Part shown: piece after piece, positions 33,731-44,114 of the stretch
Position numbering within the stretch: position 1 is the first letter of the stretch
How the letters are laid out: each line of letters starts with the position of its first letter
Origin: an uncultured Acidobacteriota bacterium
Lineage (GTDB): Bacteria; Acidobacteriota; UBA6911; RPQK01
Length of the DNA stretch: 64,000 nucleotides
Direction of reading: 5' to 3'
Assembly (NCBI GenBank): GCA_964421755.1
Contig: CAYQYP010000061.1
Location: forward strand, 24,143-88,142
Translations under genes and position numbers: made by a program
Notes under the pieces: generated by a model
Told to the model about the DNA's origin: nothing
What the model saw: only the letters and a program-made list of their open reading frames with translations
The model's database searches: none

Positions 33731-35050
33731 ATGGCGAGTGACAATAAGCAAAATCGTCGTGAGTTTCTCATTGGATCCGGGGCGCTCTTGACCGCGGCCG
33801 TCGGCTTCCCGACGATCGTCCCCAGTAATGTGCTCGGGCGAGGCGCGGGGGTGGCTCCGAGTAACCAGGTGATTCTCGCCTGCATCGGAGTCGGCTGGCA
33901 GGGCACATCCAACATGGAAACCTTCCTCGAGGACAATAACGCCCGCATTGTTGCGGTCTGCGACATCGACAAGGAGCACCTGGAGAATGCTCGCGACATC
34001 GTCAACAAGGCCTACGGGAACAGCGACTGCCGGACCTTTCACAACTACGAAGATGTAATCGGGCGGCAGGATATCGATGCGCTTTCGCTCGGGCTCCCCG
34101 ACCACTGGCATGCCATTCCTGCCGTCGCGGCCGCTGCAGCAGGCAAGGATATTTACGGTGAGAAGCCATTGGCACACAACTGGGCGGAGGGCCGCGCCAT
34201 CTGCGACGCTGTCAAGCGCTACGGACGGGTCTGGCAAACCGGAAGCTGGCAACGCTCGATTGACAATTTTCGCTTCGGATGCGAGTTGGTGCTGAACGGG
34301 CGCATCGGAAAGGTCCATACGATCGAGGTTGGACTCCCCGATGGGCATACCGATTTCGCCGGAACCAGAGGTCTGGAAGACCCCGGCCCACCTCCGCCCA
34401 CCCTCGATTACGAACGATGGCTAGGTCCTGCCCCCTTCGCTCCCTACTGCGTGGCGCGAGTCCACAAGAACTGGCGGTGGAACCTCGATTACGCCGGAGG
34501 CCAGATTATGGATTGGGTCGGACATCATGTCGACATCGGCCACTGGGGCGCTGGTCTGGACTACGAGGGGCCTGTCAAGGTGGATGGCGAGGGAACCTAC
34601 CCAGACCGTGGAAAGCTCTGGAACACAGCTACCCGATACAGGGTCAATGCAAAGTATGCAAATGGGATCAAGATGATCATCGCCGGAGGCCACTCGGACA
34701 TCCGAAGCGGCACAAAATGGATCGGCGATCAGGGATGGGTTTGGGTAAATCGGGGAGCCATCGATGCCGAACCGAAGAGCCTGCTGAAGGTCAAGCTGGC
34801 ACCCGGCGACATTCACCTGTTTCGGTCACCCGGTCACACCCGCGAGTTCATTCAGTGCGTTAAGAGCAGGGGCCTGACTCTTTGTCCGGCCGAAGTCGCT
34901 CACCGTTCTGCGACTCCGGGATTCCTGGGCCAGATCGCAATGCTGACCGGCCGGGAAATCACGTGGGATCCGGTCAACGAGAAGATTCTGGGAGACCCTC
35001 AAGCCGAGCGATTGTTGTCCAGACCCATGCGCAGCCCGTGGCACCTTTAG
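33731..35050 (+). CDS. Tat-exported Gfo/Idh/MocA-family oxidoreductase.
   Basis: Tat motif NRREFLIGSGALLTAA. Rossmann motif CIGVGWQG. EKP motif. Confidence 0.8.
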   Translation: MASDNKQNRREFLIGSGALLTAAVGFPTIVPSNVLGRGAGVAPSNQVILACIGVGWQGTSNMETFLEDNNARIVAVCDIDKEHLENARDIVNKAYGNSDCRTFHNYEDVIGRQDIDALSLGLPDHWHAIPAVAAAAAGKDIYGEKPLAHNWAEGRAICDAVKRYGRVWQTGSWQRSIDNFRFGCELVLNGRIGKVHTIEVGLPDGHTDFAGTRGLEDPGPPPPTLDYERWLGPAPFAPYCVARVHKNWRWNLDYAGGQIMDWVGHHVDIGHWGAGLDYEGPVKVDGEGTYPDRGKLWNTATRYRVNAKYANGIKMIIAGGHSDIRSGTKWIGDQGWVWVNRGAIDAEPKSLLKVKLAPGDIHLFRSPGHTREFIQCVKSRGLTLCPAEVAHRSATPGFLGQIAMLTGREITWDPVNEKILGDPQAERLLSRPMRSPWHL

Positions 35051-35082
35051 GATTTTCGGCAGCACATATTTCGGAGAATAGT

Positions 35083-37095
35083 ATGAGGAATCGTAACGTT
35101 CCGCTGGTTATTTCGCTGATGCTGTTGACGCTGGTGTTTCCTGGTGGCCTGCTCGCCCTCCAACAGCCGGGGACGAGCCAGGAAGCCGTGAAGGCGCCTG
35201 CAACCCTTGCCGACTTGGAGCCGTTCCTGACTCAGGTCGCTTCCTACAAGTATGGTCAGGATCGCAAGCCGCTTGCCGCTGTAATTGAGTTCGTTCGCAA
35301 TGCATACGTATCTGGAAAAGAAGTACCCGAGTTAGAGAAGAGGCTTGTCCAAATGCTTTCGTCGGCTGGGACCGAGGATGGCAAGCGTTTCGTGTGCGAA
35401 CAGTTAAGCCTGATCGGGACCGCGGCCGCCGTGCCGGTTCTTTCCGGAATGTTGGCTGACCCCAAGAGTTCGGATATGGCCCGGTACGCGCTCGAGCGCA
35501 TCAGCGATCCGGAAGCCAGCGAGGCTCTGGTCAAGGCTTTGAGCTCTACAACCGGCAAGGTGCGAATCGGAGTGATCAACAGCCTGGGGCGACGCGGCGA
35601 TTCGCGGGCGCCGGTCGTTGGCGCTCTTAAACCGTTCATCTCGAACCGGGATGAGGACACGGCGGTCGCCGCAATAACGGCTGTCGGCTTTATCGGCAAT
35701 GTGGAGGCGGCCGTTCTGCTCGCCGATGCCCGTCGGAAAGCCTCGTCTTCTCTGCGGTTGAGGACCACAGATGCCTATCTGAACTGTGCCGAACGTATGG
35801 CGAAGGGTGGCGACAGGGGATCGGCGGTTAAGATCTACCAGGAGCTTAACTCGGCGCTCGAGACTCCCCTGGTCCAAATCGCGGCGCTTCGCGGCATCGC
35901 GGCCTTGGAAGGGGCGGGAGCCAAAACTGCGCTCGTGGCCGCGCTCGACAAGGGGCGTCCCGTCGTCCAGGCGGGAGTGGTCCGCCTGCTCGCGGCGCTG
36001 CCTGGAGAGGCGACGACCGGGCTGCTCGTGGAGCGCTACGGCAAATTGCCGCCGAGCGTCCAGGCCCAGGTCCTGTCGGCGCTCGTCGACCGGGGGGATC
36101 CCGGTGCCAAGGGACTGGTCCAGCAGGCCGCCAGTAGCCCGGAGCTCAATATTCGCGTGGCCGCCATCGAGGGAATGAGCAAGGTCGGCGACTCTTCGGC
36201 GGTCGTCTTCCTTGCCGAGCGTGCCGCAAACACCCAGGATCCGGAGAAGGGTGCCGCCCGCTTCAGCTTGTACCGGTTGGCTGGCGCCGATGTAGACCAG
36301 ACCATCCTCGGGAGCCTCGAGGTGTCGGACCCGAAAGTAAAGACGGAGCTGATTCGTGCTATCGGCGAACGCAGGATCTACTCGGGGATCGATGCCCTGC
36401 TCAAGGCGGCTGGGGATGCAAATTCCCAGGTGAGGAGGGAGTCATTCCGCGCCTTGAGGGAGACGGCGGGTGCGGAACAGATGCCTCAGTTGGTGTCGCT
36501 GCTCGTGGCCGCTAAGCCGGGTGCGGAACGCACCGATGCCGAGGCCGCCGTTGTGGCGGTCATTCGAAGAAGTGAGAACAGGACGCTCGTTGATCAGGTG
36601 GCCTCTGCATTGCCGAAAGCCACGGATCCTGAGGCCAAGTCTTCGCTCCTGCTGGTGCTCGGAACTGTCGGAAGTCGGTCGTCTTTACCGCTTCTGAAGG
36701 ATGCGCTGAAGAGCACCGAGGATGATGTCCGACGCGGAGCCATCCTGGGACTGTCACAGTGGCCTGGCCCCGAGCCTATTCCCGATCTGCTGGAAGTTGC
36801 CAAGAACGACCCGAGCGAGACCCATCGCGTGCTCGCTCTTCGGGCTTACATCCGCCTGGTCGCCCGGCCCCGCTTCAGAAGCCGTTCCGAAACTGCCAAA
36901 ATGCTCGGTGAAGCGCTGAAAATCGCCCAGGAGGATGCGGAGAAACGCGCCGTTCTGGCCGCTTTGCCTGATTTCGCGTCGCCCGAGGCACTGCAGTTGG
37001 CCGAAGGATTAAAAAAGGAAGCCAACCTCGCCGGCGAGGCGAACGTCGCGGTCGAAAAAATCAAGACCGCCCTGGCAGCCCAGCCGCAGCGCTAG
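35083..37095 (+). CDS. Secreted HEAT/PBS-lyase repeat protein.
   Basis: Signal peptide MRNRNVPLVISLMLLTLVFPGGLLA. Numerous roughly 30-aa repeats with A/V…R…A…ALG…GD periodicity. No CxxCH heme motif. Confidence 0.7.
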   Translation: MRNRNVPLVISLMLLTLVFPGGLLALQQPGTSQEAVKAPATLADLEPFLTQVASYKYGQDRKPLAAVIEFVRNAYVSGKEVPELEKRLVQMLSSAGTEDGKRFVCEQLSLIGTAAAVPVLSGMLADPKSSDMARYALERISDPEASEALVKALSSTTGKVRIGVINSLGRRGDSRAPVVGALKPFISNRDEDTAVAAITAVGFIGNVEAAVLLADARRKASSSLRLRTTDAYLNCAERMAKGGDRGSAVKIYQELNSALETPLVQIAALRGIAALEGAGAKTALVAALDKGRPVVQAGVVRLLAALPGEATTGLLVERYGKLPPSVQAQVLSALVDRGDPGAKGLVQQAASSPELNIRVAAIEGMSKVGDSSAVVFLAERAANTQDPEKGAARFSLYRLAGADVDQTILGSLEVSDPKVKTELIRAIGERRIYSGIDALLKAAGDANSQVRRESFRALRETAGAEQMPQLVSLLVAAKPGAERTDAEAAVVAVIRRSENRTLVDQVASALPKATDPEAKSSLLLVLGTVGSRSSLPLLKDALKSTEDDVRRGAILGLSQWPGPEPIPDLLEVAKNDPSETHRVLALRAYIRLVARPRFRSRSETAKMLGEALKIAQEDAEKRAVLAALPDFASPEALQLAEGLKKEANLAGEANVAVEKIKTALAAQPQR

Positions 37096-37100
37096 GTTCT

Positions 37101-37229
37101 GAGCAGGACCGACCGGGCCGCAAAAGCGGCGGATTCTGAAAAGCGAATCCGTCCTGCGACTGCTCGCCGTGCGAAAGCGATCGGTTGTAGGGCGGATTCA
37201 CTTTTCAGAATCCGCCGCTTTTGCGGCCC
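37101..37229. repeat. Copy C of the nested palindromic repeat element.
   Basis: GACCGGGCCGCAAAAGCGGCGGATTCTGAAAAGCGAATCCG…GGGCGGATTCACTTTTCAGAATCCGCCGCTTTTGCGGCCCGGTTGGCA. Confidence 0.8.
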
Positions 37230-37396
37230 GGTTGGCAACCATTTACCGCCAAGAGTGTAATCAACTGAACGGTTTCCGCTATTTAGGCGGCTTCTGCCCC
37301 CAACCTGCCGTCCGATTTGCATTTAGCGCCTCAACTGTTGATAATCTCCGTAATACCTGCGCGTTCTCTGGTACGCAACCTATTAATTGATAATCT

Positions 37397-38779
37397 ATGA
37401 AAAGCCAGATCAGCAGAACCGTTACTTTTTGGACGATTGCCGCATTCGTCTCCTTCGGCGTTGGGACAGGGCTGGCGGGACAATCACAGACTGAAGCTGC
37501 ACCGGGGCAATCCGGTTCGCCGGCACCCCTTCCGACTACCGAATCCTCGCCGGACCAGTCGGACAGCAGGATTGAGGAGCTCAAAGCTCGACGGCGTGCC
37601 CAGGCAGGCAAGTCGCGGGAGAAACATCTGTCCGGGTTCGAACGCGGCTTAGCCGAAATGGAAAAGACACGGTTCTACAGGATCCTGAACTTTAATTACA
37701 GAGGACTGTATCCTCAATTCGCCACCCTGAGCACCGGATCAGGCTTTGCTCCGGGAGCGCGTTTCTGGCGACCGAATATCGCGGGGTTGCCGCTTGACCT
37801 GCAGGCTTCCGGTGCCTATTCGTTCAATGGTTATCAACGTTACGGCCTGCAGTTCGGACACATCCAGAAGCGGGGCAGTTCCTTCAGCTTGGAAGGAGTC
37901 GGGATTGGGGCGGCCGCGCAGTTCGACGAGGCTACGCCCAAGGAACCGGGTTTTTTCCTCTATGGGGATCTAACCTACCGGTTTTATCCACAGGAAGATT
38001 TCTTCGGCCTCGGACCGTCTTCACTAGACGCTGACCGCACCGACTTTCTGCAGGAGGACATGTCCTACGACGCAGTTGGCGGCTGGCAGGTGAACCGGTG
38101 GTTGGGTGCGGCTGTCCGGCTTGGCTACCTTCAGGTCAACGTCAACCGGGGAACGGACGGGCGGTTTCCGGACACGCAAGACCTGTTCACCGACCTGCAG
38201 GCGCCTGGTCTGGACCGCCAGCCTGATTTTCTGGATATCACCGGCGCGGTTCTGATCGATTACCGCGATCGCCCGGGCAACCCGCACAAGGGGGGGATGA
38301 TCGGGTTCTATCTTTCCCGGCATGACGAGAGGAAAGGGCATGAGTTTGAATTCAAACGGGCAGCGTTGGACATCCGGCAGTTCATCCCGCTTTTCTCCGA
38401 GCAGAGAGTCATAGCCGTGCGGTTTTTCACCTCAGCGGATGATGCTGACAACGGAAGTCGCATCCCGTTCTTCCTCGAGGAGCACCTGGGCGGATCGGAG
38501 ACCTTGCGCGGTTTCAGGGAGTTTCGCTTTCGTGATCAACGGCTCATGTACCTGTCCGCTGAGTACCGTTGGGAAGCCGCCCACTTCCTCGAACTGGCGC
38601 TCTTCTATGATACGGGCAAGGTCTTCTCGCAACGGTCCGACTTCAAGTTCGACAACATGGAGAAGAGCATCGGGGGGGGCATCCGGTTCAAAACACCGCA
38701 CGCAACCGTCCTGAGGATCGACATGGGACGAAGCGACGAGGGCAACCGATTTTTCTTCAAGTTTGGGCCTTCTTTCTAG
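37397..38779 (+). CDS. Omp85-family outer-membrane beta-barrel protein (bacterial surface antigen D15/TpsB-like, short form).
   Basis: Signal peptide. C-terminal barrel motifs (LRGFREFRFRDQRLMYLSAEYRWE…LALFYDTGKVF…FFFKFGPSF) match Omp85 C-terminal signatures. Confidence 0.7.
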   Translation: MKSQISRTVTFWTIAAFVSFGVGTGLAGQSQTEAAPGQSGSPAPLPTTESSPDQSDSRIEELKARRRAQAGKSREKHLSGFERGLAEMEKTRFYRILNFNYRGLYPQFATLSTGSGFAPGARFWRPNIAGLPLDLQASGAYSFNGYQRYGLQFGHIQKRGSSFSLEGVGIGAAAQFDEATPKEPGFFLYGDLTYRFYPQEDFFGLGPSSLDADRTDFLQEDMSYDAVGGWQVNRWLGAAVRLGYLQVNVNRGTDGRFPDTQDLFTDLQAPGLDRQPDFLDITGAVLIDYRDRPGNPHKGGMIGFYLSRHDERKGHEFEFKRAALDIRQFIPLFSEQRVIAVRFFTSADDADNGSRIPFFLEEHLGGSETLRGFREFRFRDQRLMYLSAEYRWEAAHFLELALFYDTGKVFSQRSDFKFDNMEKSIGGGIRFKTPHATVLRIDMGRSDEGNRFFFKFGPSF

Positions 38780-38788
38780 CGAGTCGAT

Positions 38789-40510
38789 ATGAAGAGGAAA
38801 GCAAGGGCAACGATAAGGTTCTGTCTGGTTCTAGTCTTGTCGACGGCCTGGCTCACGGCGGCGCCGCAGAAATTCAAGAGCGACGATCCGATCTGGGTAG
38901 ACCCGGACAACCTGCCGATTCCGCAGCCGGAAGAACAAGACGATCGCAGCCAGATTCTCGATTTGATCGAGAACACGTTCACCCACAAGCCGGATGACAT
39001 CATCCCTCGGGCGGAGAACATCAATACGCTCGGGGAAGTCCCCGATTCCTCGTGGTTCACCAATCGAATGGGTCGAAGGATTCTGAACGTGGAGGAACTC
39101 GTACGCGGTCCGGACCGCGGGAACGGGCCGGACGTCAGCCAACCGTGGACCATCATTAGTGCCAAGACAGAGGGCATCACTCCGGGTTTCAGGATTCGAG
39201 ACGCGCGGGGCGACGTCTATCACATCAAGTTTGATCCCGCCGATAACGACCAGCTCGCCACGTCGAGTGAAGTGATCTGCACAAAGCTTTTCCACGCCTT
39301 CGGGTATTACGTCCCGGAGAATTACCTGGCCTTCGTCACCCGAGAGATGATCCGAATCGATGAGAAGGCTGAGAAGCCCGCGAAAATCACGGATGAGAAC
39401 GGGAAGGAGCGAAGGCTTACCGAAAGGGACGTCGACCGAATCTTCGAGCGAATCGCCGTCCGCGCTGATGGGCGCGTTCAATGCGTCGCGAGCCTCAACA
39501 TCGAGGGGGGTCTGATCGGGCCTTTCAAATACTACGGGCTCCGATCGGACGACCCGAATGATATCTTCCCGCACGAGCATCGCAGGGAGCTGCGCGGGCT
39601 CCGGGTCTTTTCCGCATGGCTGAACCACGATGATTCCAGGAGCATGAACACAAAAGATTTCTTCATCCCGGAGCCTGGGACAGGTCCCACTTCCAAGTCG
39701 GAAAACTCCGCGGGGGAAGTGGAGCCCAAGGAACCCAAAGAACCGAAGATGGGGTTCATCAGACACTACCTGATCGACTTTGGTTCGTGCCTGGGAAGCG
39801 GGAGCGTCCAGATCCAGGGGCGGCGAGCGGGAAACGAGTATCGGTTGGAATGGACCCCGATGCTGAAATCCGCCCTCACCTTCGGTTTGTGGGATCGGCC
39901 CTGGCGGTACATCGACTATCCGGACTATCCGTCAATCGGGCGCTTTGAATCTGACTATTTTCATCCCGCGCGGTGGAAACCGGAGTATCCCAACCCGGCG
40001 TTTGAGCGCATGACCGGCGAAGACGCCTTCTGGGCCACGCGCATTCTGATGCGCTTCACCGATGACATGCTGGCTGCAGTGGTGAGAACGGGACAGTGGC
40101 TCGACAGTGAGGCTGAACAGTACTTGCTGAAGACCCTGATCAGGCGACGGGACAAGATAGTCAAGTACTACCTTGGGCAGGTGAATCCGCTCGATGATTT
40201 TCGAATCGGCGAGGATCGTGGCAAGCCGGCCGTGACGTTCACCAACCTGGGGGAGAAGGCGGCAATCGCGCCGGCCTATTCCTACGAGTGGCAGTGGTTC
40301 CGGTTCGACAACCGCACCGGTACGACGGAGAGTCTCGGACCGGTCACGGTGACAACGGCCGCTCCGGTGCCGCTTCCCGATGACCGCGGTGATTATCTCC
40401 TTTTGAAGATCAGGACAATCACTTCAGGCCAGGCAGGGTGGCGAAAAGACGTATTGGTTTATGTGAGGAACGAAAGCCAGAAGAAAGTTGTGGGGGTGGA
40501 GCGGGAATAG
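38789..40510 (+). CDS. Secreted 573-aa protein with a protein-kinase-like (PKL) catalytic core; atypical kinase or nucleotidyl-/phosphotransferase fold.
   Basis: Signal peptide. Catalytic-loop motif HxDxxxxN (NHDDSRSMN, nt 39624-39650) followed about 45 residues later by a DFG motif (HYLIDFGSCLG, nt about 39771-39785), with a Pro/Glu/Lys low-complexity insert between them. Confidence 0.5.
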   Translation: MKRKARATIRFCLVLVLSTAWLTAAPQKFKSDDPIWVDPDNLPIPQPEEQDDRSQILDLIENTFTHKPDDIIPRAENINTLGEVPDSSWFTNRMGRRILNVEELVRGPDRGNGPDVSQPWTIISAKTEGITPGFRIRDARGDVYHIKFDPADNDQLATSSEVICTKLFHAFGYYVPENYLAFVTREMIRIDEKAEKPAKITDENGKERRLTERDVDRIFERIAVRADGRVQCVASLNIEGGLIGPFKYYGLRSDDPNDIFPHEHRRELRGLRVFSAWLNHDDSRSMNTKDFFIPEPGTGPTSKSENSAGEVEPKEPKEPKMGFIRHYLIDFGSCLGSGSVQIQGRRAGNEYRLEWTPMLKSALTFGLWDRPWRYIDYPDYPSIGRFESDYFHPARWKPEYPNPAFERMTGEDAFWATRILMRFTDDMLAAVVRTGQWLDSEAEQYLLKTLIRRRDKIVKYYLGQVNPLDDFRIGEDRGKPAVTFTNLGEKAAIAPAYSYEWQWFRFDNRTGTTESLGPVTVTTAAPVPLPDDRGDYLLLKIRTITSGQAGWRKDVLVYVRNESQKKVVGVERE

Positions 40511-40558: not shown

Positions 40559-40987
40559 CTATTGATTCTGACTACCGTTCCTGCGCTGAGCGCCCGGCGG
40601 ATTCTCCTGCCTGCGGCGTTCGCGTTCCTTCTCGCGCTCGCGCATGAAGTCGTCAAACTTTGTCATCTGCTCAGCACTCAGCACTTTCTCGAACTTTCGG
40701 TGGGTCTTGTCCCTCACCTCACCGAACGCCTTGCGATAGTCCTTCCTCGACTCGTCGAAGATCTGGCGCATCTGGATCTCCTGCTCCTCGCTGAGGGCAA
40801 GGAGCGAAGACAGTTGGTCCATCATCCGTTCGGGATTATCGCGAGGACCTCGGGGAGGACGGGTGCCACCTGAATCGAAAGCAGTCGAACGAGGCGCCAT
40901 GAACAGGTAGACCATTCCGCCGCCCGTCAAGGCACCGATCAGGAATACGGCAAGGACCCAGACAACAGCGCGGCTGCGGTTATTCAC
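40559..40987 (-). CDS. Membrane-anchored periplasmic Spy/CpxP/ZraP-family (LTxxQ-motif) stress protein.
   Basis: N-terminal TM. LSEEQ and LSAEQ LTxxQ-like motifs. Charged helical C-terminus. Confidence 0.6.
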   Translation of the reverse strand: MNNRSRAVVWVLAVFLIGALTGGGMVYLFMAPRSTAFDSGGTRPPRGPRDNPERMMDQLSSLLALSEEQEIQMRQIFDESRKDYRKAFGEVRDKTHRKFEKVLSAEQMTKFDDFMREREKERERRRQENPPGAQRRNGSQNQ

Positions 40988-41390
40988 CCGGATCCTCCGA
41001 CCGCGCCTTGTGCAGCGAGTTGATCATGTTCTCGAAGGAAACCTCGCTGGCTGCCGAGTCATCCAGGATCACGGTATCCGGCAGTTCCGGTTCCCTGAGA
41101 ACATTGATGATCAGGAGACCGGTCGCCAGGATAAGCAACGCCAGGACGGGAGCCAGCCTCGCCGCCGCCCAGCGGAAATAGAACCACATCGGCTGACTGG
41201 CCTGTTGGATCGACCGGGCCACCTTGCTGGCAAAGAACGGAGGAGGCTCAACCGGGCGGGCCGATCGGGCCTGCCTGACGAGGAACATGTGCAATCGGTA
41301 CTTCTTTTGGCACTCGGGACACTCCTCCAGATGACTCCGGTCAAGCTGGTCCTCCGAGCCGACCATTTCCCAGTCAATATGCCGTTTCAA
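40980..41390 (-). CDS. Anti-sigma factor (zinc-finger N-terminal domain, single TM).
   Basis: HLEECPECQ…H zinc-binding anti-sigma motif and one TM helix. TTG start at 41390 with a strong SD (GAGGAGGaacgtcTTG), 12 nt after the sigma gene stop. Confidence 0.65.
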   Translation of the reverse strand: MKRHIDWEMVGSEDQLDRSHLEECPECQKKYRLHMFLVRQARSARPVEPPPFFASKVARSIQQASQPMWFYFRWAAARLAPVLALLILATGLLIINVLREPELPDTVILDDSAASEVSFENMINSLHKARSEDPGE

Positions 41391-41401
41391 GACGTTCCTC
41401 C

Positions 41402-41983
41402 TCAACGACTTTCGAGAACTCCCTCAAGACGCTTCAGCAGTTTCCTTTTCACCCGGCTCAACCGAATCCTGACGGCAGTCGGTGAAGTGCCGAGGGTCGT
41501 CGCGATGTCGTCGTAGCTGCGTCCTTCAACTTCACGGAGGACAAAAGTCATTTTATCCTTTGCCGAGAGTTTGTCCAGCAAACGATGCAGCAATTTAAAC
41601 GACTCTTCTTCTTCCGATTCAAGTAAAGGTGAACCCTTGGTGCTCTTTTCAAACAGATACTTGACCCGATCTTCTTCTTCCTCCGTCATGTCCGCGAAAA
41701 GGCGAATGAACCTATGCCGGGCCTTTCGCATCTCGTCCAGACAATGGTTGACGGCAATCCGGTAAATCCAGGCCTGCAACGGACGGGACTGGTCGTAACG
41801 CTCCAGAGAGCGGTAGAGTTTGAGGAAGATTTCCTGGGCGACGTCTTCGGCCTCAGAGTTGTACCCGAGGTAGTGGTAGATCGCGTTGAAAACAAACCTC
41901 TGATAACGCCTAACGATCTCCTCAAACGCATCCTCGTCTCCCCGAAGGATTTCGGCCACGAGTTCCGGATCCGTCTTCGGCAT
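41402..41983 (-). CDS. ECF (sigma-70 family group IV) RNA polymerase sigma factor.
   Basis: Region 2 (FVFNAIYHYLGY…DVAQEIFLKLY) and region 4 (YDDIATTLGTSPTAVRIRLSRVKRKL) signatures. Confidence 0.85.
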   Translation of the reverse strand: MPKTDPELVAEILRGDEDAFEEIVRRYQRFVFNAIYHYLGYNSEAEDVAQEIFLKLYRSLERYDQSRPLQAWIYRIAVNHCLDEMRKARHRFIRLFADMTEEEEDRVKYLFEKSTKGSPLLESEEEESFKLLHRLLDKLSAKDKMTFVLREVEGRSYDDIATTLGTSPTAVRIRLSRVKRKLLKRLEGVLESR

Positions 41984-42095: not shown

Positions 42096-42821
42096 ATGCA
42101 TAGGTACTTGTTGGTTCTGTCTGCTCTTGTTGGCATCTTCAGCTCGACACTGGTATTAGCCCAGCAACCGTTTCAGCGGAAAGATCATAAGTGGGAAGTA
42201 TCGGTTTTCGCTGGTTCGAGTCACCGTGGAGACGGGGTATTTCCCACCACGTTCACCGATACGGCTGTCCCGCCCCAAGTGACGTCCAATAACGTAGGGT
42301 TGAGCTTCGCCTCCGGATACATTGTCGGTGCTCGCGTGACGGAGAATCTTGGCAAATACTTCGGAGCCGAGCTCGAGTACAGTCTGTCCAACCAGCCCCT
42401 CGTTTTCACCAACCTCACTCCGGATATCAGTCGTGTTTCGGTCGACCATAGGGTTCACCAGATCACCTATGTCGTTCTGGTCTACGGGCTGCCGCGCAGC
42501 AGCCGGTGGCGGCCCTACGGCCTCGTCGGCCCCGGGATCTCCCTGTATGAGTTCTTCGGCGACAAGGAAGACGACGCGATCGCCAGGGGCCTGAGCCTCA
42601 AAGACCGCTGGAAGTTCGGCGCGACTTTCGGGGGTGGAGTGAAGTACCGCGTCACCGATCAGGTCGGCCTGCGGTTCGACGTAAAAGATCACCTGACCGG
42701 CGTACCTGATTTCGGTCTCCCGGCCACGGGCACTGCGACGGCGCCGGGTTTCCGGCCAGACGGAACGCTGCAAAACTGGCAATTCACGATCGGCCTTTCG
42801 TACCTGTTTTCCGATAGATAG
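42096..42821 (+). CDS. Small outer-membrane beta-barrel protein (OmpW/OmpA-like eight-strand family).
   Basis: Signal peptide. Alternating hydrophobic beta-strands and a C-terminal …IGLSYLFSDR aromatic terminus. Confidence 0.6.
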   Translation: MHRYLLVLSALVGIFSSTLVLAQQPFQRKDHKWEVSVFAGSSHRGDGVFPTTFTDTAVPPQVTSNNVGLSFASGYIVGARVTENLGKYFGAELEYSLSNQPLVFTNLTPDISRVSVDHRVHQITYVVLVYGLPRSSRWRPYGLVGPGISLYEFFGDKEDDAIARGLSLKDRWKFGATFGGGVKYRVTDQVGLRFDVKDHLTGVPDFGLPATGTATAPGFRPDGTLQNWQFTIGLSYLFSDR

Positions 42822-42890: not shown

Positions 42891-44114
42891 ATGTTGCCGA
42901 TAATGAACTCGACCGCGCCGCGGACTGCCAGGCTCGTCGCGATCTGGTGGCCCCTCCTACTGATCGTCTCGCCGCTCTTTTCACAGGACTTGCGGAGCCC
43001 TGCCTTCATGCAGGCGGCCGAAAAGGGTTTTGCCGAGATCTATAACCTGGATTACGACCAGGCTAACAAGACCTTTTCCGACCTGCGCGCGCGCTACCCA
43101 GAGCACCCAGCCCCTCCGCTGTACCTGGCCACCGTCACGTGGCTCTCAGAGTTATTTGGGCGCAACGAGCTGGATCTGGACCGCTTCATAGCCCCGGCCT
43201 ACTTCACGCAGCCCACGACTCGCAAGATGCCAGCTGAGGCCCGCAAGCTGTTCTTTGATAATGTCCAGACCTCTCAGAACCTGGCCGAGGCAATCCTCAA
43301 GAAGAACCCTAAGAACCACGATGCACGCTACTTCGTCGGAAGCTCTCATGGGGTGCTTGGCGCATTCTCCATAACAATCGACCGCAGTTACTCCGATGCC
43401 TTCTCACATGGCAAGAAGGCGTACAAGTACCACGACGCGATCATCGAGGAGAACCCCAACTACTTTGATGCCTACATGTCGGTCGGATTGTACGAGTACA
43501 TCGTCGACAACCTGCCGTGGTACATCAAGTGGGTAGCGGTTATAGTCGGCTACCGTGGAAGCCAGGAGCGCGGTTTCGATTACCTGGGCCGGGCAGCCAG
43601 CAAGGGCCAGTATGCGGCCGATGACGCAGCCGTTCTCCAGATGGTTCTTTTCGTACGGGAGAACCGTTACGCGGATGCTTTGAAGAACGTGAGCTCGCTC
43701 CATTCGAAATACCCCCGCAACTACATCCTTCATCTGAATAAGGCGCAGATCCTCGAAAAACTCGGGCGGCGAAGCGAGGCGGCAGGGGAGTACCGGAAGG
43801 TGCTGTCCCAGGCGGATGCGAAGGCCCCCAACTATGGCAAGATTCCGATGCCCGGGTTCCGACTGGATGCCGCCCAAAAGCTTCTGAGCCTGGGCGACGG
43901 CGGTGGTGCCCTGACCCAGTTCGAGAAGCTGCTCGCAGACAAATCCGCCCAAAGGCAGAAAGTTATCTGCCACTTGGGCGCAGGCCAGGCGATGGACCTC
44001 TTGGGACGCAGGAAGGAAGCGACCGCGCACTACGAAGAAGTACTGCGTCTGCCCGATATGGAGGATTCCCACGACCGGGCTCGCGATTATCTGAAGCGCC
44101 CATATCGCCCCTAG
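42891..44114 (+). CDS. Secreted tetratricopeptide-repeat (TPR) protein.
   Basis: Signal/TM at the N-terminus and multiple TPR-like helical repeats. Confidence 0.6.
   Translation: MLPIMNSTAPRTARLVAIWWPLLLIVSPLFSQDLRSPAFMQAAEKGFAEIYNLDYDQANKTFSDLRARYPEHPAPPLYLATVTWLSELFGRNELDLDRFIAPAYFTQPTTRKMPAEARKLFFDNVQTSQNLAEAILKKNPKNHDARYFVGSSHGVLGAFSITIDRSYSDAFSHGKKAYKYHDAIIEENPNYFDAYMSVGLYEYIVDNLPWYIKWVAVIVGYRGSQERGFDYLGRAASKGQYAADDAAVLQMVLFVRENRYADALKNVSSLHSKYPRNYILHLNKAQILEKLGRRSEAAGEYRKVLSQADAKAPNYGKIPMPGFRLDAAQKLLSLGDGGGALTQFEKLLADKSAQRQKVICHLGAGQAMDLLGRRKEATAHYEEVLRLPDMEDSHDRARDYLKRPYRP

Follow-up and report, generated by a model that had tools for sequence, protein, structure and literature searches.

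An Omp85-family barrel gene and the gene directly downstream of it, which encodes a signal-peptide-bearing protein with a predicted atypical kinase fold, make up a two-gene envelope module that is self-contained and inherited together. Both open reading frames, their coordinates, their placement on the forward strand and their 9-nt separation, as described in the original prediction, agree with the ORF list and with the sequence of the window (the whole 64,000-nucleotide stretch of DNA that was analysed):

37397 to 38779, forward strand: Omp85-family barrel gene (460 aa)
38780 to 38788, forward strand: intergenic spacer of 9 nt (cgagtcgat), read directly from the sequence
38789 to 40510, forward strand: kinase-like protein gene (573 aa)

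The barrel gene ends with a TAG stop codon at 38777-38779 and the kinase-like gene begins with an ATG at 38789, a spacing consistent with a tightly coupled operon. We propose, with a probability of about 0.6, that the POTRA-less barrel accepts the kinase-like enzyme encoded beside it, for catalysis outside the cytoplasm. The novel aspect is a kinase-like family obligately coupled to an Omp85 barrel of the noNterm class. Such barrels have been catalogued since 2014 (PMC4104836), and neither a client nor a function is known for them (PMC11358297). The literature searched, which omits most subscription-journal papers, contains no description of an Omp85-kinase module.

The synteny of the pair extends to other genomes. 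Across several phyla the Omp85 gene lies directly upstream of the kinase-like gene in 72 of 75 loci, which span Acidobacteriota, Gemmatimonadota, Krumholzibacteriia and Calditrichaceae, and a search in the reverse direction, starting from the Omp85 gene, gave adjacency in 3/3 loci. The intergenic gap elsewhere is mostly -15 to +30 nt (tblastn-derived), and paralogous pairs are inherited as units. As evidence of interaction, only this agreement of paralog pairs is informative; the mirror-tree Spearman correlation of 0.75 carries little weight, such a value being expected for any two genes that share genomes. No universal neighbour besides the Omp85 gene was found across the loci, and a calcineurin-like phosphoesterase gene is present in just ~12-15% of them. 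The pair is present in at least hundreds of related species. The family of the 573-aa protein has at least 537 loci among species-representative genomes and comprises more than 7,800 clusters at 90% identity, all unannotated, with 50-63% identity among the 120 closest homologs. Its members come from free-living soil, groundwater and marine lineages and are abundant in Acidobacteriota and their relatives.

The kinase-like protein can be divided into the following elements, numbered by residue and by position in the window.

38789 to 38863, forward strand: signal peptide, about residues 1-25 (MKRKARATIRFCLVLVLSTAWLTAA), from homolog N-termini
38867 to 39142, forward strand: conserved N-terminal extension, residues 27-118, from the conservation profile
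39143 to 39337, forward strand: kinase N-lobe, residues 119-183, from the structure model and conservation
39623 to 39649, forward strand: catalytic loop N279-H-D-D282-S-R-S-M-N287, from motif, conservation and model
39674 to 39748, forward strand: Pro/Glu/Lys-rich insert, about residues 296-320, lineage-specific, from the homolog alignment
39776 to 39784, forward strand: DFG metal-binding motif D330-F331-G332, within IDFG at 329-332, from conservation
40184 to 40507, forward strand: C-terminal FnIII-like beta-sandwich domain, residues 466-573

The predicted signal peptide holds across the family: a hydrophobic h-region is found in 237 of the 241 homologs with a complete N-terminus, in which a median of 27 residues precedes the conserved KF..DDP. 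The N-terminal extension contains KFxxDDPxWxDPD and a highly conserved block, LGEVPDSSWFTNR (81-93), in which residues 81-90 have a mean conservation of 0.84, among the highest in the protein. Since pLDDT is 86-96 at residues 81-120, that part of the extension packs against the kinase core. The structure model shows a bilobal fold with an N-lobe beta-sheet, helix C and a helical C-lobe. The N-lobe runs from strand 1 through a Gly-rich loop (K126..G129..G133-F134), strand 2 and strand 3 (K147, IKFDP) to helix C with E161, followed by strands 4 and 5; the modelled strands cover residues 120-126, 133-137, 143-148 and 178-183, and the helix 157-171. In this model the ATP-anchoring K147 falls in strand 3 (143-148), and the Glu paired with it, E161, belongs to helix C (157-171). 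K126, G129, G133, F134, K147, D149 and E161 are invariant in a 30-homolog alignment, and among 246 homologs K147 is kept in 228 and Glu or Asp occupies position 161 in 229.

The two motifs on which the kinase assignment was originally based, NHDDSRSMN (279-287) and IDFG (329-332), are conserved well beyond what a chance string match would give. D282, the proposed catalytic base, is present in 223 of the 246 homologs (9 more have Glu) and N287, the proposed metal-binding residue, in 228; D330 is found in 241, G332 in 211, and H326, upstream of the DFG motif, in 243. In the 30 homologs at 52-63% identity D282, N287 and D330-F-G are invariant; across 76 homologs at 31-63% identity, conservation of D282, N287 and D330 is still 90% or more. 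The catalytic loop lies between helix 266-278 and strand 288-294 of the model. The Gly-rich loop, K147, E161, D282, N287 and D330-F-G together make up a complete catalytic constellation, placed on the expected elements of a confident model of the kinase fold, and the predicted structure and the motifs thus point to an atypical kinase. Short motifs of this kind can arise at random in long proteins, and a single window alone cannot decide whether two unrelated genes are adjacent by chance. Nevertheless, coincidence is refuted by the synteny in both directions, by the fold model and by the invariance and correct placement of the motifs, and we give it practically no weight.

Comparison with known structures places CtkA closest to the predicted model, with the HipA/CtkA, PI4KII, Fam20 and CotH group as structural neighbours and PI4KII-alpha and MavQ among the top ones. 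At the sequence level the relationship is remote. CtkA (JHP0940; PDB 3AKJ) and the HipA/HipT Ser/Thr kinases share 11-15% identity with the 573-aa protein and give no profile-level match, and Fam20 (the Golgi casein kinase Fam20C and the xylosylkinase Fam20B) and CotH share 8-11% and give no Pfam match. Searches of PDB sequences, by phmmer with the protein and by hmmsearch with the 30- and 76-sequence profiles, found no kinase. Their sole match was an IgA-Fc-receptor, aligned marginally (E 0.2) with the C-terminal beta-sandwich. Aligning the family profile with E. coli K-12 HipA by hhalign gave a spurious 39-column match (probability 0.35%). Pfam HipA_2 (PF20613) scored 18.6 bits against a cutoff of 27, over the N-lobe only (residues 122-194); among 76 members the best E values were 3e-4 for HipA_2 and 0.012 for HipA_C (PF07804), and the Pfam Fam20C and CotH models matched neither the protein nor these members. 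Pfam and NCBIfam gave the 573-aa protein no family assignment.

Joint conservation of the Lys, Glu, Asp, Asn and Asp positions is the usual signature of active kinases in the PKL superfamily. All five positions and the Gly-rich loop are kept in the 573-aa protein and in 88% of the family, and the residues are co-conserved down to 31-63% identity. This argues against the protein being a non-catalytic scaffold, a pseudokinase fold used as a binding module whose 'catalytic' residues bind a ligand or metal. Such a scaffold would be in keeping with the scarcity of ATP outside the cytoplasm and with the K/D/N constellation being degenerate in ~20 of the 246 homologs (~8%), every long form included. 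Moreover, the most conserved block of the family, R252-DDPND-H262-RRELR269, lies outside the canonical active site; together with EVPDSSWFTNR it is more conserved than the catalytic residues and is retained in the degenerate paralogs. Part of the family's function is therefore independent of catalysis. We regard a non-catalytic scaffold as unlikely. The long homologs (685-1158 aa) were also considered as Omp85-kinase fusions, and this was rejected; they carry instead an extra C-terminal domain that has no Pfam match. The C-terminal end of the 573-aa protein is a conserved VVGxERE, in which close homologs show no variation at G569 and R572.

The barrel protein matches Pfam Omp85 (PF01103) over residues 277-460 with an E value of 6.4e-16, above the Pfam threshold. 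Three elements within it are listed here.

37562 to 37687, forward strand: POTRA-replacing helical segment, residues 56-97, periplasmic or plug-like, from model and conservation
38504 to 38515, forward strand: loop-6 signature L370-R371-G372-F373, the (V/L)RG(F/Y) motif, from conservation in 32 homologs
38603 to 38617, forward strand: strand-13 signature F403-Y404-D405-T406-G407 (FxDxG), the lid-lock partner of loop 6

A signal peptide (about residues 1-27) and a disordered Ser/Thr/Pro/Gln-rich linker (28-54) are followed by helices at 56-97 and a predicted 16-stranded barrel (104-456) that ends in ...FKFGPSF. In the model, LRGF is located in a 31-residue loop joining strands 11 and 12, and FYDTG lies inside strand 398-410. 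Among the 32 homologs no substitution occurs at L370, R371, F403, Y404, D405 or G407, and conservation reaches at least 90% at G372 and F373, so the Omp85 C-terminal barrel motifs noted earlier from the sequence are confirmed by both conservation and the PF01103 match. The protein had also been described as a short barrel with at most one POTRA domain; short it is, although the model shows zero POTRA domains rather than one, with no beta-alpha-alpha-beta-beta unit ahead of strand 1 and no Pfam POTRA match. The three short helices in this place (56-71, 80-90 and 93-97) have low pLDDT values of 55-74 in the model; all 32 homologs share E89, and at least 90% of them share R58 and R66.

The absence of POTRA places the protein in the 'noNterm' Omp85 class (PMC4104836). 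It resembles the Leptospira members LIC12252, LIC12254 and LIC12258 (PMC11358297) of the subfamily described by Heinz and Lithgow 2014 (PMC4104836) in lacking a POTRA arm while retaining the lid-lock motifs, and noNterm members, as here, occur in free-living environmental bacteria. However, the hallmark of the Leptospira/Cytophagales group is an N-terminal barrel segment, DUF5982, and the 460-aa protein gave no match to it (a Pfam scan at E up to 1 returned Omp85 and ShlB only), and its gene neighbourhoods are variable (PMC11358297), in contrast to the obligate kinase-like partner seen here. TamA has three POTRA domains and its partner TamB is inner-membrane-anchored and DUF490/AsmA-like, unlike the POTRA-less barrel and kinase-fold partner of this module; the NCBIfam TamA model gave 24.5 bits against a cutoff of 625. 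PlpD (type Vd) has one POTRA and a covalently fused passenger, whereas here the partner is separate and soluble and POTRA is absent.

In organisation the pair parallels type Vb systems (FhaC/FHA, CdiB/CdiA, ShlB/ShlA). In both, an Omp85-superfamily barrel gene adjoins a co-oriented gene for one Sec-exported partner, and the 16-stranded barrel carries signature motifs in L6 and strand 13. In contrast, type Vb TpsB proteins have two POTRA domains. Type Vb transporters also have an N-terminal plug helix (H1) within the barrel pore; in the 460-aa protein the segment ahead of the barrel has the low-confidence helices at 56-97. Pfam scans found no TPS domain (Haemagg_act, NPNL/NPNGI) in the 573-aa protein or in sets of 30 or 76 homologs, as expected from the earlier view that this is not a classical TpsA/TpsB pair; the partner's N-terminus is KFxxDDP...EVPDSSWFTNR. 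The nearest structural neighbours of the barrel are BamA, Sam50 and TamA, and by its modelled structure the barrel looks more like an insertase than a translocator and is not of the TpsB type.

In the mechanism that we favour, Sec would export the kinase-like enzyme, which would then be received by its cognate barrel in a 1:1 complex. The barrel would hand the enzyme to the outer membrane or keep it there, a functionally type-V-like 'barrel plus passenger in trans' that would work without TPS-domain or POTRA recognition. At its destination the enzyme would perform NTP-dependent phosphoryl (or related nucleotidyl) transfer to an envelope or extracellular substrate. Interaction, translocation and catalysis are steps that we infer, and several observations weigh against them: the barrel is closer to insertases than to translocators, a barrel without POTRA has no known substrate-recognition route, about 8% of the family has lost catalytic residues, and there is no profile match to solved kinases or to E. 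coli HipA. The extracellular dome of noNterm barrels also speaks against a secretion pore (PMC11358297). That the POTRA-less barrel exports or displays an active kinase beyond the inner membrane, and thus constitutes an unrecognised outer-membrane system of free-living diderms, is offered as a tentative reading.

To our knowledge the periplasm has no described source of ATP, and an active extracytoplasmic kinase is for this reason biochemically awkward. Fam20 kinases obtain ATP inside the Golgi lumen, and the assembly of CotH proceeds from the cytoplasm of the mother cell; we know of no like supply at the Gram-negative periplasm or surface. Fam20 and CotH kinases, unlike the 573-aa protein, are also without a barrel partner. 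A signal peptide combined with a complete kinase active site is hard to square with the view of an ATP-less periplasm. Either a donor supply exists, or the enzyme works elsewhere, at the cell surface or inside a target cell, or the fold serves another purpose; each outcome would be informative.

The kinase-like protein could alternatively be a periplasmic accessory that docks below the POTRA-less barrel and lends it a periplasmic domain in trans, in the way that TamB serves TamA or the BAM lipoproteins serve BamA. The complex would then serve outer-membrane biogenesis or the modification of lipid or LPS through the lateral gate of the barrel, possibly as a lipid kinase, which the similarity to the lipid kinases PI4KII-alpha and MavQ would fit. 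Complex formation is common to this proposal and to the one that we favour; topology and purpose differ. The barrel's nearest neighbours and its retained lid-lock motifs agree with an accessory role, as does the persistence of catalytically dead paralogs, which suggests a structural role, and a part for noNterm Omp85 proteins in membrane-protein biogenesis was suggested by Heinz and Lithgow (PMC4104836). The conserved VVGxERE strand could in principle pair with a lateral gate and so resemble the hybrid-barrel state of TamAB, whose structure (PDB 9xdc) is present among the barrel's structural matches. However, neither TamB/AsmA-like nor lipoprotein features are present in the partner (a lipobox-like motif occurs in just 17 of 246 homologs), genes of outer-membrane protein biogenesis are not conserved near the pair, and the lack of a known ATP source in the periplasm counts here as well. 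We consider the accessory role possible, though doubtful.

A delivered toxin is a further candidate, in which a HipA/CtkA-like kinase would be sent into competitor or host cells through a dedicated Omp85 pore. The cytoplasm of the target cell would supply ATP, HipA-family kinases are toxins, and CtkA, the closest structure, is a secreted H. pylori kinase that targets host cells and relies on a type IV secretion system (PMC5536186). Nevertheless, HipA toxins are cytoplasmic and are partnered by an antitoxin, HipB or HipS, whereas the 573-aa protein has a Sec signal peptide; no HipB or HipS gene adjoins it, no immunity- or antitoxin-like gene is conserved beside the pair, and the Omp85 gene is its only conserved neighbour. 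Compared with CtkA and HipA, it also adds the ~90-residue conserved N-terminal extension, the C-terminal FnIII-like domain and the Omp85 partner. The family is well conserved and widespread in free-living lineages, unlike polymorphic effectors; no TPS, RHS or pre-toxin delivery domain was found, and the barrel differs from the TpsB type. PADLOC, which covers systems known in 2023, matched neither protein, leaving a defence-system reading unsupported. An effector function therefore seems very unlikely.

Export or display of an active enzyme, if true, would imply that substrates in the envelope or outside the cell are phosphorylated under regulation, a bacterial counterpart to the secretory-pathway phosphorylation of the Fam20 type, and with it a supply of nucleotide or another phosphate donor to the periplasm or cell surface. 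The exported phosphoesterases of some operons could then oppose or recycle the reaction, and the orphan noNterm Omp85 class would gain its first function and its first client. The function of noNterm barrels is now directly testable, as this clade has a single, obligate and easily traced partner, and extracytoplasmic phosphorylation in bacteria likewise becomes a testable question. With a Pfam/NCBIfam model and a name for the family, thousands of genes would be better annotated, and the host lineages (Acidobacteriota and related soil, groundwater and marine bacteria) are poorly studied.

The Pro/Glu/Lys-rich insert noted between the two catalytic motifs is real; two strands flank the active site, and the insert occupies the hairpin that joins them. 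None of the 29 aligned homologs has the insert, its pLDDT is <50 at residues 300-316, and its DNA includes a tandem repeat of 9 nt (39725-39744, CCCAAAGAA x2.2, TRF).

Two elements lie in the DNA upstream of the pair:

37109 to 37235: imperfect inverted repeat with 59-nt arms and a 9-nt loop, from a repeat search
37316 to 37345, forward strand: weak sigma-70-like promoter match, a candidate operon promoter, from consensus match only

The promoter candidate (TTTGCA-18-GATAAT, 9/12 matches) lies ~50 nt upstream of the Omp85 start; with 2 sites of this quality in the region and 1.0 expected, the match alone is not significant. The inverted repeat (arms 37109-37167 and 37177-37235, 88% complementarity) lies within the 300 nt that separate the Omp85 gene from the HEAT-repeat gene upstream of it. 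An Rfam scan of the window gave no match, so the repeat does not correspond to any known RNA family. It may act as a terminator or mark a boundary, and it need not be part of the two-gene module. Its core 24-mer occurs in the window at these two sites only, against a chance expectation of 0.

The sequence, read directly, agrees exactly with the original prediction in coordinates and spacing, and both genes lie on the + strand: the Omp85 gene stops with TAG at 38777–38779, and the kinase-like gene begins with an ATG after a further 9 nt (cgagtcgat). Each gene occurs once within the window, whose G+C content (∼59%) is unbroken at the pair. The 300-nt spacer 5′ of the Omp85 gene holds an inverted repeat and one weak promoter-like match. 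The repeat has no match in Rfam, and its 24-nt core is found at no other site in the window; a terminator, an operon boundary, and the remnant of a small mobile element are all possible. An operon encoding a sigma factor and its probable anti-sigma factor (40559–41983) is convergent on the pair, with OmpW-like and TPR genes beyond it. All of these are envelope-related, yet they are not kept beside the pair in other genomes.

Features at and around the gene pair (window positions, strand where noted)
34882–37095, large HEAT_2-repeat protein, directly upstream of the Omp85 gene
37109–37235, imperfect inverted repeat between the HEAT-repeat and Omp85 genes (59-nt arms, 88% complementary, 9-nt loop)
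37397–38779, +, Omp85 gene, 460 aa
38789–40510, +, kinase-like gene, 573 aa
40559–40987, −, small single-pass membrane protein with a charged C-terminal tail, sigma factor operon
40980–41405, −, probable anti-sigma factor without Pfam match, same operon
41402–41983, −, ECF-type sigma-70 factor, same operon
42096–42821, +, OmpW-like small barrel
42891–44114, +, TPR protein

One of the loci from other genomes (L084, 210–3023) also encodes a HEAT_2 protein, of 937 aa, ∼1 kb upstream of its pair. This is probably a coincidence, since clustering of the reading frames across loci shows no recurrence.

The only sequence match of the 573-aa protein is a sub-threshold one to Pfam HipA_2 (residues 122–194; 18.6 bits, cutoff 27). 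It has no match in NCBIfam and none among PDB sequences, whether searched by single sequence or by two family profiles, and hhalign found no match between the kinase-like family and E. coli HipA. The HipA_2 signal is weak but systematic, appearing in Pfam scans of 21 of 30 close and 17 of 76 diverse members; HipA_C appears in 10 of the latter, and no other kinase family was detected in either set. The predicted structure, with its elements in kinase order and kinases as its structural neighbors, bears out the bilobal protein-kinase-like (PKL) fold that had been proposed. Foldseek independently ranked Fam20 and PI4KII-alpha at the top, weakly (E about 0.02). The 573-aa protein is probably related, very distantly, to the atypical kinases of the HipA/CtkA, PI4KII, Fam20, and CotH group and, judging from the model, may work as they do; by sequence, it falls outside every Pfam family of that group.

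Order of elements in the 573-aa model
Strand 1, residues 120–126
Gly-rich loop, K126..G129..G133-F134, then strand 2
Strand 3, bearing K147
Helix C, residues 157–171, bearing E161, then strands 4 and 5
Inserted subdomain, between strand 5 and helix E
Helix E, residues 266–278
Catalytic loop, N279-H-D-D282-S-R-S-M-N287
Strand, lineage-specific insert, strand, between the catalytic loop and DFG
DFG motif, H326..D330-F-G
Activation-segment-like stretch, residues 340–371, low model confidence
Helical C-lobe

Structural neighbors of the 573-aa model (score)
H. pylori CtkA, 13.2 (204 residues aligned)
PI4KII-alpha, 11.4
Hydra Fam20, 10.8
HipA-like kinase 7wcf, 9.9
Zebrafish Fam20C, 9.9
Actin-fragmin kinase, 9.6
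HipA, 9.6
CotH, 9.4
HipT, 9.1
MavQ, 8.5

The family comprises over 7,825 clusters at 90% identity, each of them annotated as hypothetical and lacking Pfam domains, and 3,300 clusters at 50% identity (E ≤ 1e-3); at least 537 stretches in one-per-species genomes were confirmed as relatives of the kinase-like gene. The HxDxxxxN and DFG motifs first noticed in the 573-aa protein are present and are conserved in most of this family. At the proposed catalytic positions K147, E161, D282, N287, and D330, 88% of 246 full-length homologs (roughly 33–100% identity) carry the patterns KEDND (187), KDDND (22), or KEEND (7), and about 20 are clearly degenerate. The degenerate set includes all long forms (685–1158 aa), which have an extra, unannotated C-terminal domain. 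Five of these long paralogs, all outside the window (P0128, P0130, P0142, P0208, and P0250; 742–1158 aa), have lost K147, D282, and N287, and their extra domain of ∼200–600 aa has no match in Pfam; the blocks DDPND-H-RRELRG and EVPDSSWFTNR are retained. These five look like a pseudokinase branch.

Conservation in the diverse alignment is highest, exceeding that of the catalytic residues, in two blocks that degenerate paralogs also keep: R252-x-DDPND-xxx-H262-xx-RRELR269 (39542–39595; residues 252–269, modeled with low confidence) and EVPDSSWFTNR (39035–39067; residues 83–93). Possible roles of these blocks are the binding of a metal or ligand and docking with the barrel. The Pro/Glu/Lys-rich insert described between the two kinase motifs is indeed present and is private to this genome's protein: the segment (residues about 296–320; window 39674–39748) is missing from all 29 aligned homologs and is disordered in the model. 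It includes a 9-nt tandem repeat at 39725–39744 (CCCAAAGAA ×2.2, encoding PKE). The insert is a private hairpin insertion, which probably arose by slippage, and not a family feature; a tandem repeat in a surface hairpin is consistent with recent replication slippage.

A hydrophobic h-region is found in 237 of the 241 homologs with a complete N-terminus, the conserved mature start KFxxDDP being preceded by a median of 27 residues, and only 17 of 246 homologs have a lipobox-like motif. Sec export as a soluble protein therefore appears, from these N-termini, to be a property of the family.

The predicted synteny of the pair was upheld across genomes, in loci drawn from species-representative genomes (79) and by exact look-up (three). 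Among the 75 loci whose sequence extends 1.2 kb or more upstream, 72 have an Omp85 homolog immediately before the kinase-like gene on the same strand, usually with a gap between −15 and +30 nt. The exceptions are L012, where a second transposase gene separates a truncated Omp85 gene from the kinase-like gene; L021, where (as in L022) the order is reversed and Omp85 directly follows the kinase-like gene; and L017, whose contig spans 4 kb and where the upstream gene is divergently oriented. In the reverse direction, each of three Omp85 homologs was found to be followed by a 549–563-aa protein without a Pfam domain. All-against-all clustering of every reading frame in 83 loci identified just two families that recur, the kinase-like gene (83) and Omp85 (78); the next real family, of a generic response-regulator type, occurs in only 31. 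A third cluster was rejected as an artifact of antisense shadow reading frames within the kinase gene.

MAGs with two or three copies carry a separate Omp85 gene for each kinase-like gene, and both genes of a pair have their nearest other-genome relative at the same locus. The pair has thus duplicated and diverged as a unit, which argues for a specific 1:1 coupling of barrel and kinase-like protein; the pairing is obligate and co-inherited. Its hosts are Acidobacteriota (Vicinamibacteria, Terriglobia/Bryobacterales, Aminicenantes, and "Marinacidobacterales") and, outside that phylum, Gemmatimonadota, Krumholzibacteriia, and Calditrichaceae. A few bins are labeled Actinobacteria; these are probably misbinned, as the one such locus with upstream sequence (L037) has the Omp85 gene. 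The kinase-like protein is unlikely to be a toxin, because the pair has no accompanying immunity gene, PADLOC gives no matches, the family lacks effector-typical polymorphism, and it is distributed much as housekeeping genes are.

The identification of the 460-aa protein as an Omp85-type barrel is confirmed by its Pfam match (PF01103, E 6.4e-16) and by an AlphaFold2 model built from 32 homologs (pTM 0.72). In the model, a signal peptide is followed by a Ser/Thr/Pro/Gln-rich linker that is disordered (residues 19–54), three short helices (56–71, 80–90, and 93–97), and sixteen β-strands between residues 104 and 456. The original prediction allowed for at most one POTRA domain; none is present, the model having no β-α-α-β-β unit. 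The label "TpsB-like" does not hold either: the ShlB/FhaC match reaches only E 0.12, and the barrel belongs to the BamA/TamA type. NCBIfam gives BamA, TamA, and Omp85_fam matches, all sub-threshold, and the homologs (370–520 aa) match PF01103 only and, where labeled, are called "BamA/TamA family outer membrane protein". The 460-aa protein belongs to the Omp85 superfamily proper, within it to the noNterm class, without N-terminal POTRA domains, which is a default class of unknown function in the Heinz and Lithgow classification (PMC4104836; PMC11358297). The DUF5982 segment characteristic of the noNterm group of Leptospira and Cytophagales was not detected in it by a Pfam scan. Part of the mature N-terminus (residues 28–54; window 37478–37558, GQSQTEAAPGQSGSPAPLPTTESSPDQSDS) is Ser/Thr/Pro/Gln-rich with a sequence that varies among homologs; the neighboring kinase might conceivably use it as a substrate.

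The pair is not a type Vb (two-partner secretion) system, since POTRA domains, a TPS domain, and a TpsB-type barrel are all wanting. The original interpretation stands in its fold, conserved motifs, and synteny, and falls in its TpsB analogy. Our literature search, of incomplete coverage, found no description of an Omp85–kinase module, and we therefore regard as new this unannotated PKL family and its obligate association with an orphan Omp85 barrel class. Such a module would surprise specialists in outer-membrane biogenesis or atypical kinases, and it makes two open questions accessible to experiment.

From the predicted structures and the gene context, we propose that the two proteins would assemble with each other at the outer membrane, where the barrel would serve the enzyme as its own translocator or as its anchor. 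The enzyme may be exported through the barrel to the surface. All other Omp85 barrels known to us that have one soluble, Sec-dependent partner of their own are secretion devices (TpsB), and PlpD provides a precedent for a globular enzyme as passenger of an Omp85 barrel. Surface export is also favored by the presence of an FnIII-like domain, a type usual in extracytoplasmic proteins, and by the periplasm having no ATP supply that we know of. Alternatively, the kinase-like protein may dock at the barrel from the periplasm, as suggested by the BamA/TamA type of the barrel, its capped architecture, and the persistence of catalytically dead paralogs. In a Leptospira study, a capped architecture was used as an argument against a secretion pore (PMC11358297).

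In about 12–15% of loci, the pair is associated with a phosphoesterase gene; none lies near the pair in the window. One marine lineage has a second type of module, a three-gene unit of a Metallophos (calcineurin-like) phosphoesterase, a kinase-like gene, and Omp85, in that order, which stands divergent beside an ordinary pair in five loci (L011, L014, L015, L018, and L012/L021) and alone in L022.

Other arrangements with a phosphoesterase gene
L084, Omp85, kinase-like gene, Metallophos
L060, Metallophos, Omp85, kinase-like gene
L001 and L010, convergent Metallophos gene 50 nt downstream
L086, Metallophos gene upstream on the opposite strand
L085, Exo_endo_phos gene downstream

The kinases of the three-gene module retain all catalytic residues, with the catalytic loop WVNHDDCGATN against WLNHDDSRSIN in the ordinary pair. 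The phosphoesterases have signal-peptide-like N-termini and give at most a hint of a chemistry concerned with phosphate esters outside the cytoplasm. One kinase/Omp85 supercluster of the MAG CBDCLS01 contains inserted copies of a DDE transposase (DUF4372 + DDE_Tnp_1) and a second transposase (L012, 1230–5677; L021, 3670–4896), which truncate an Omp85 gene and a Metallophos gene.
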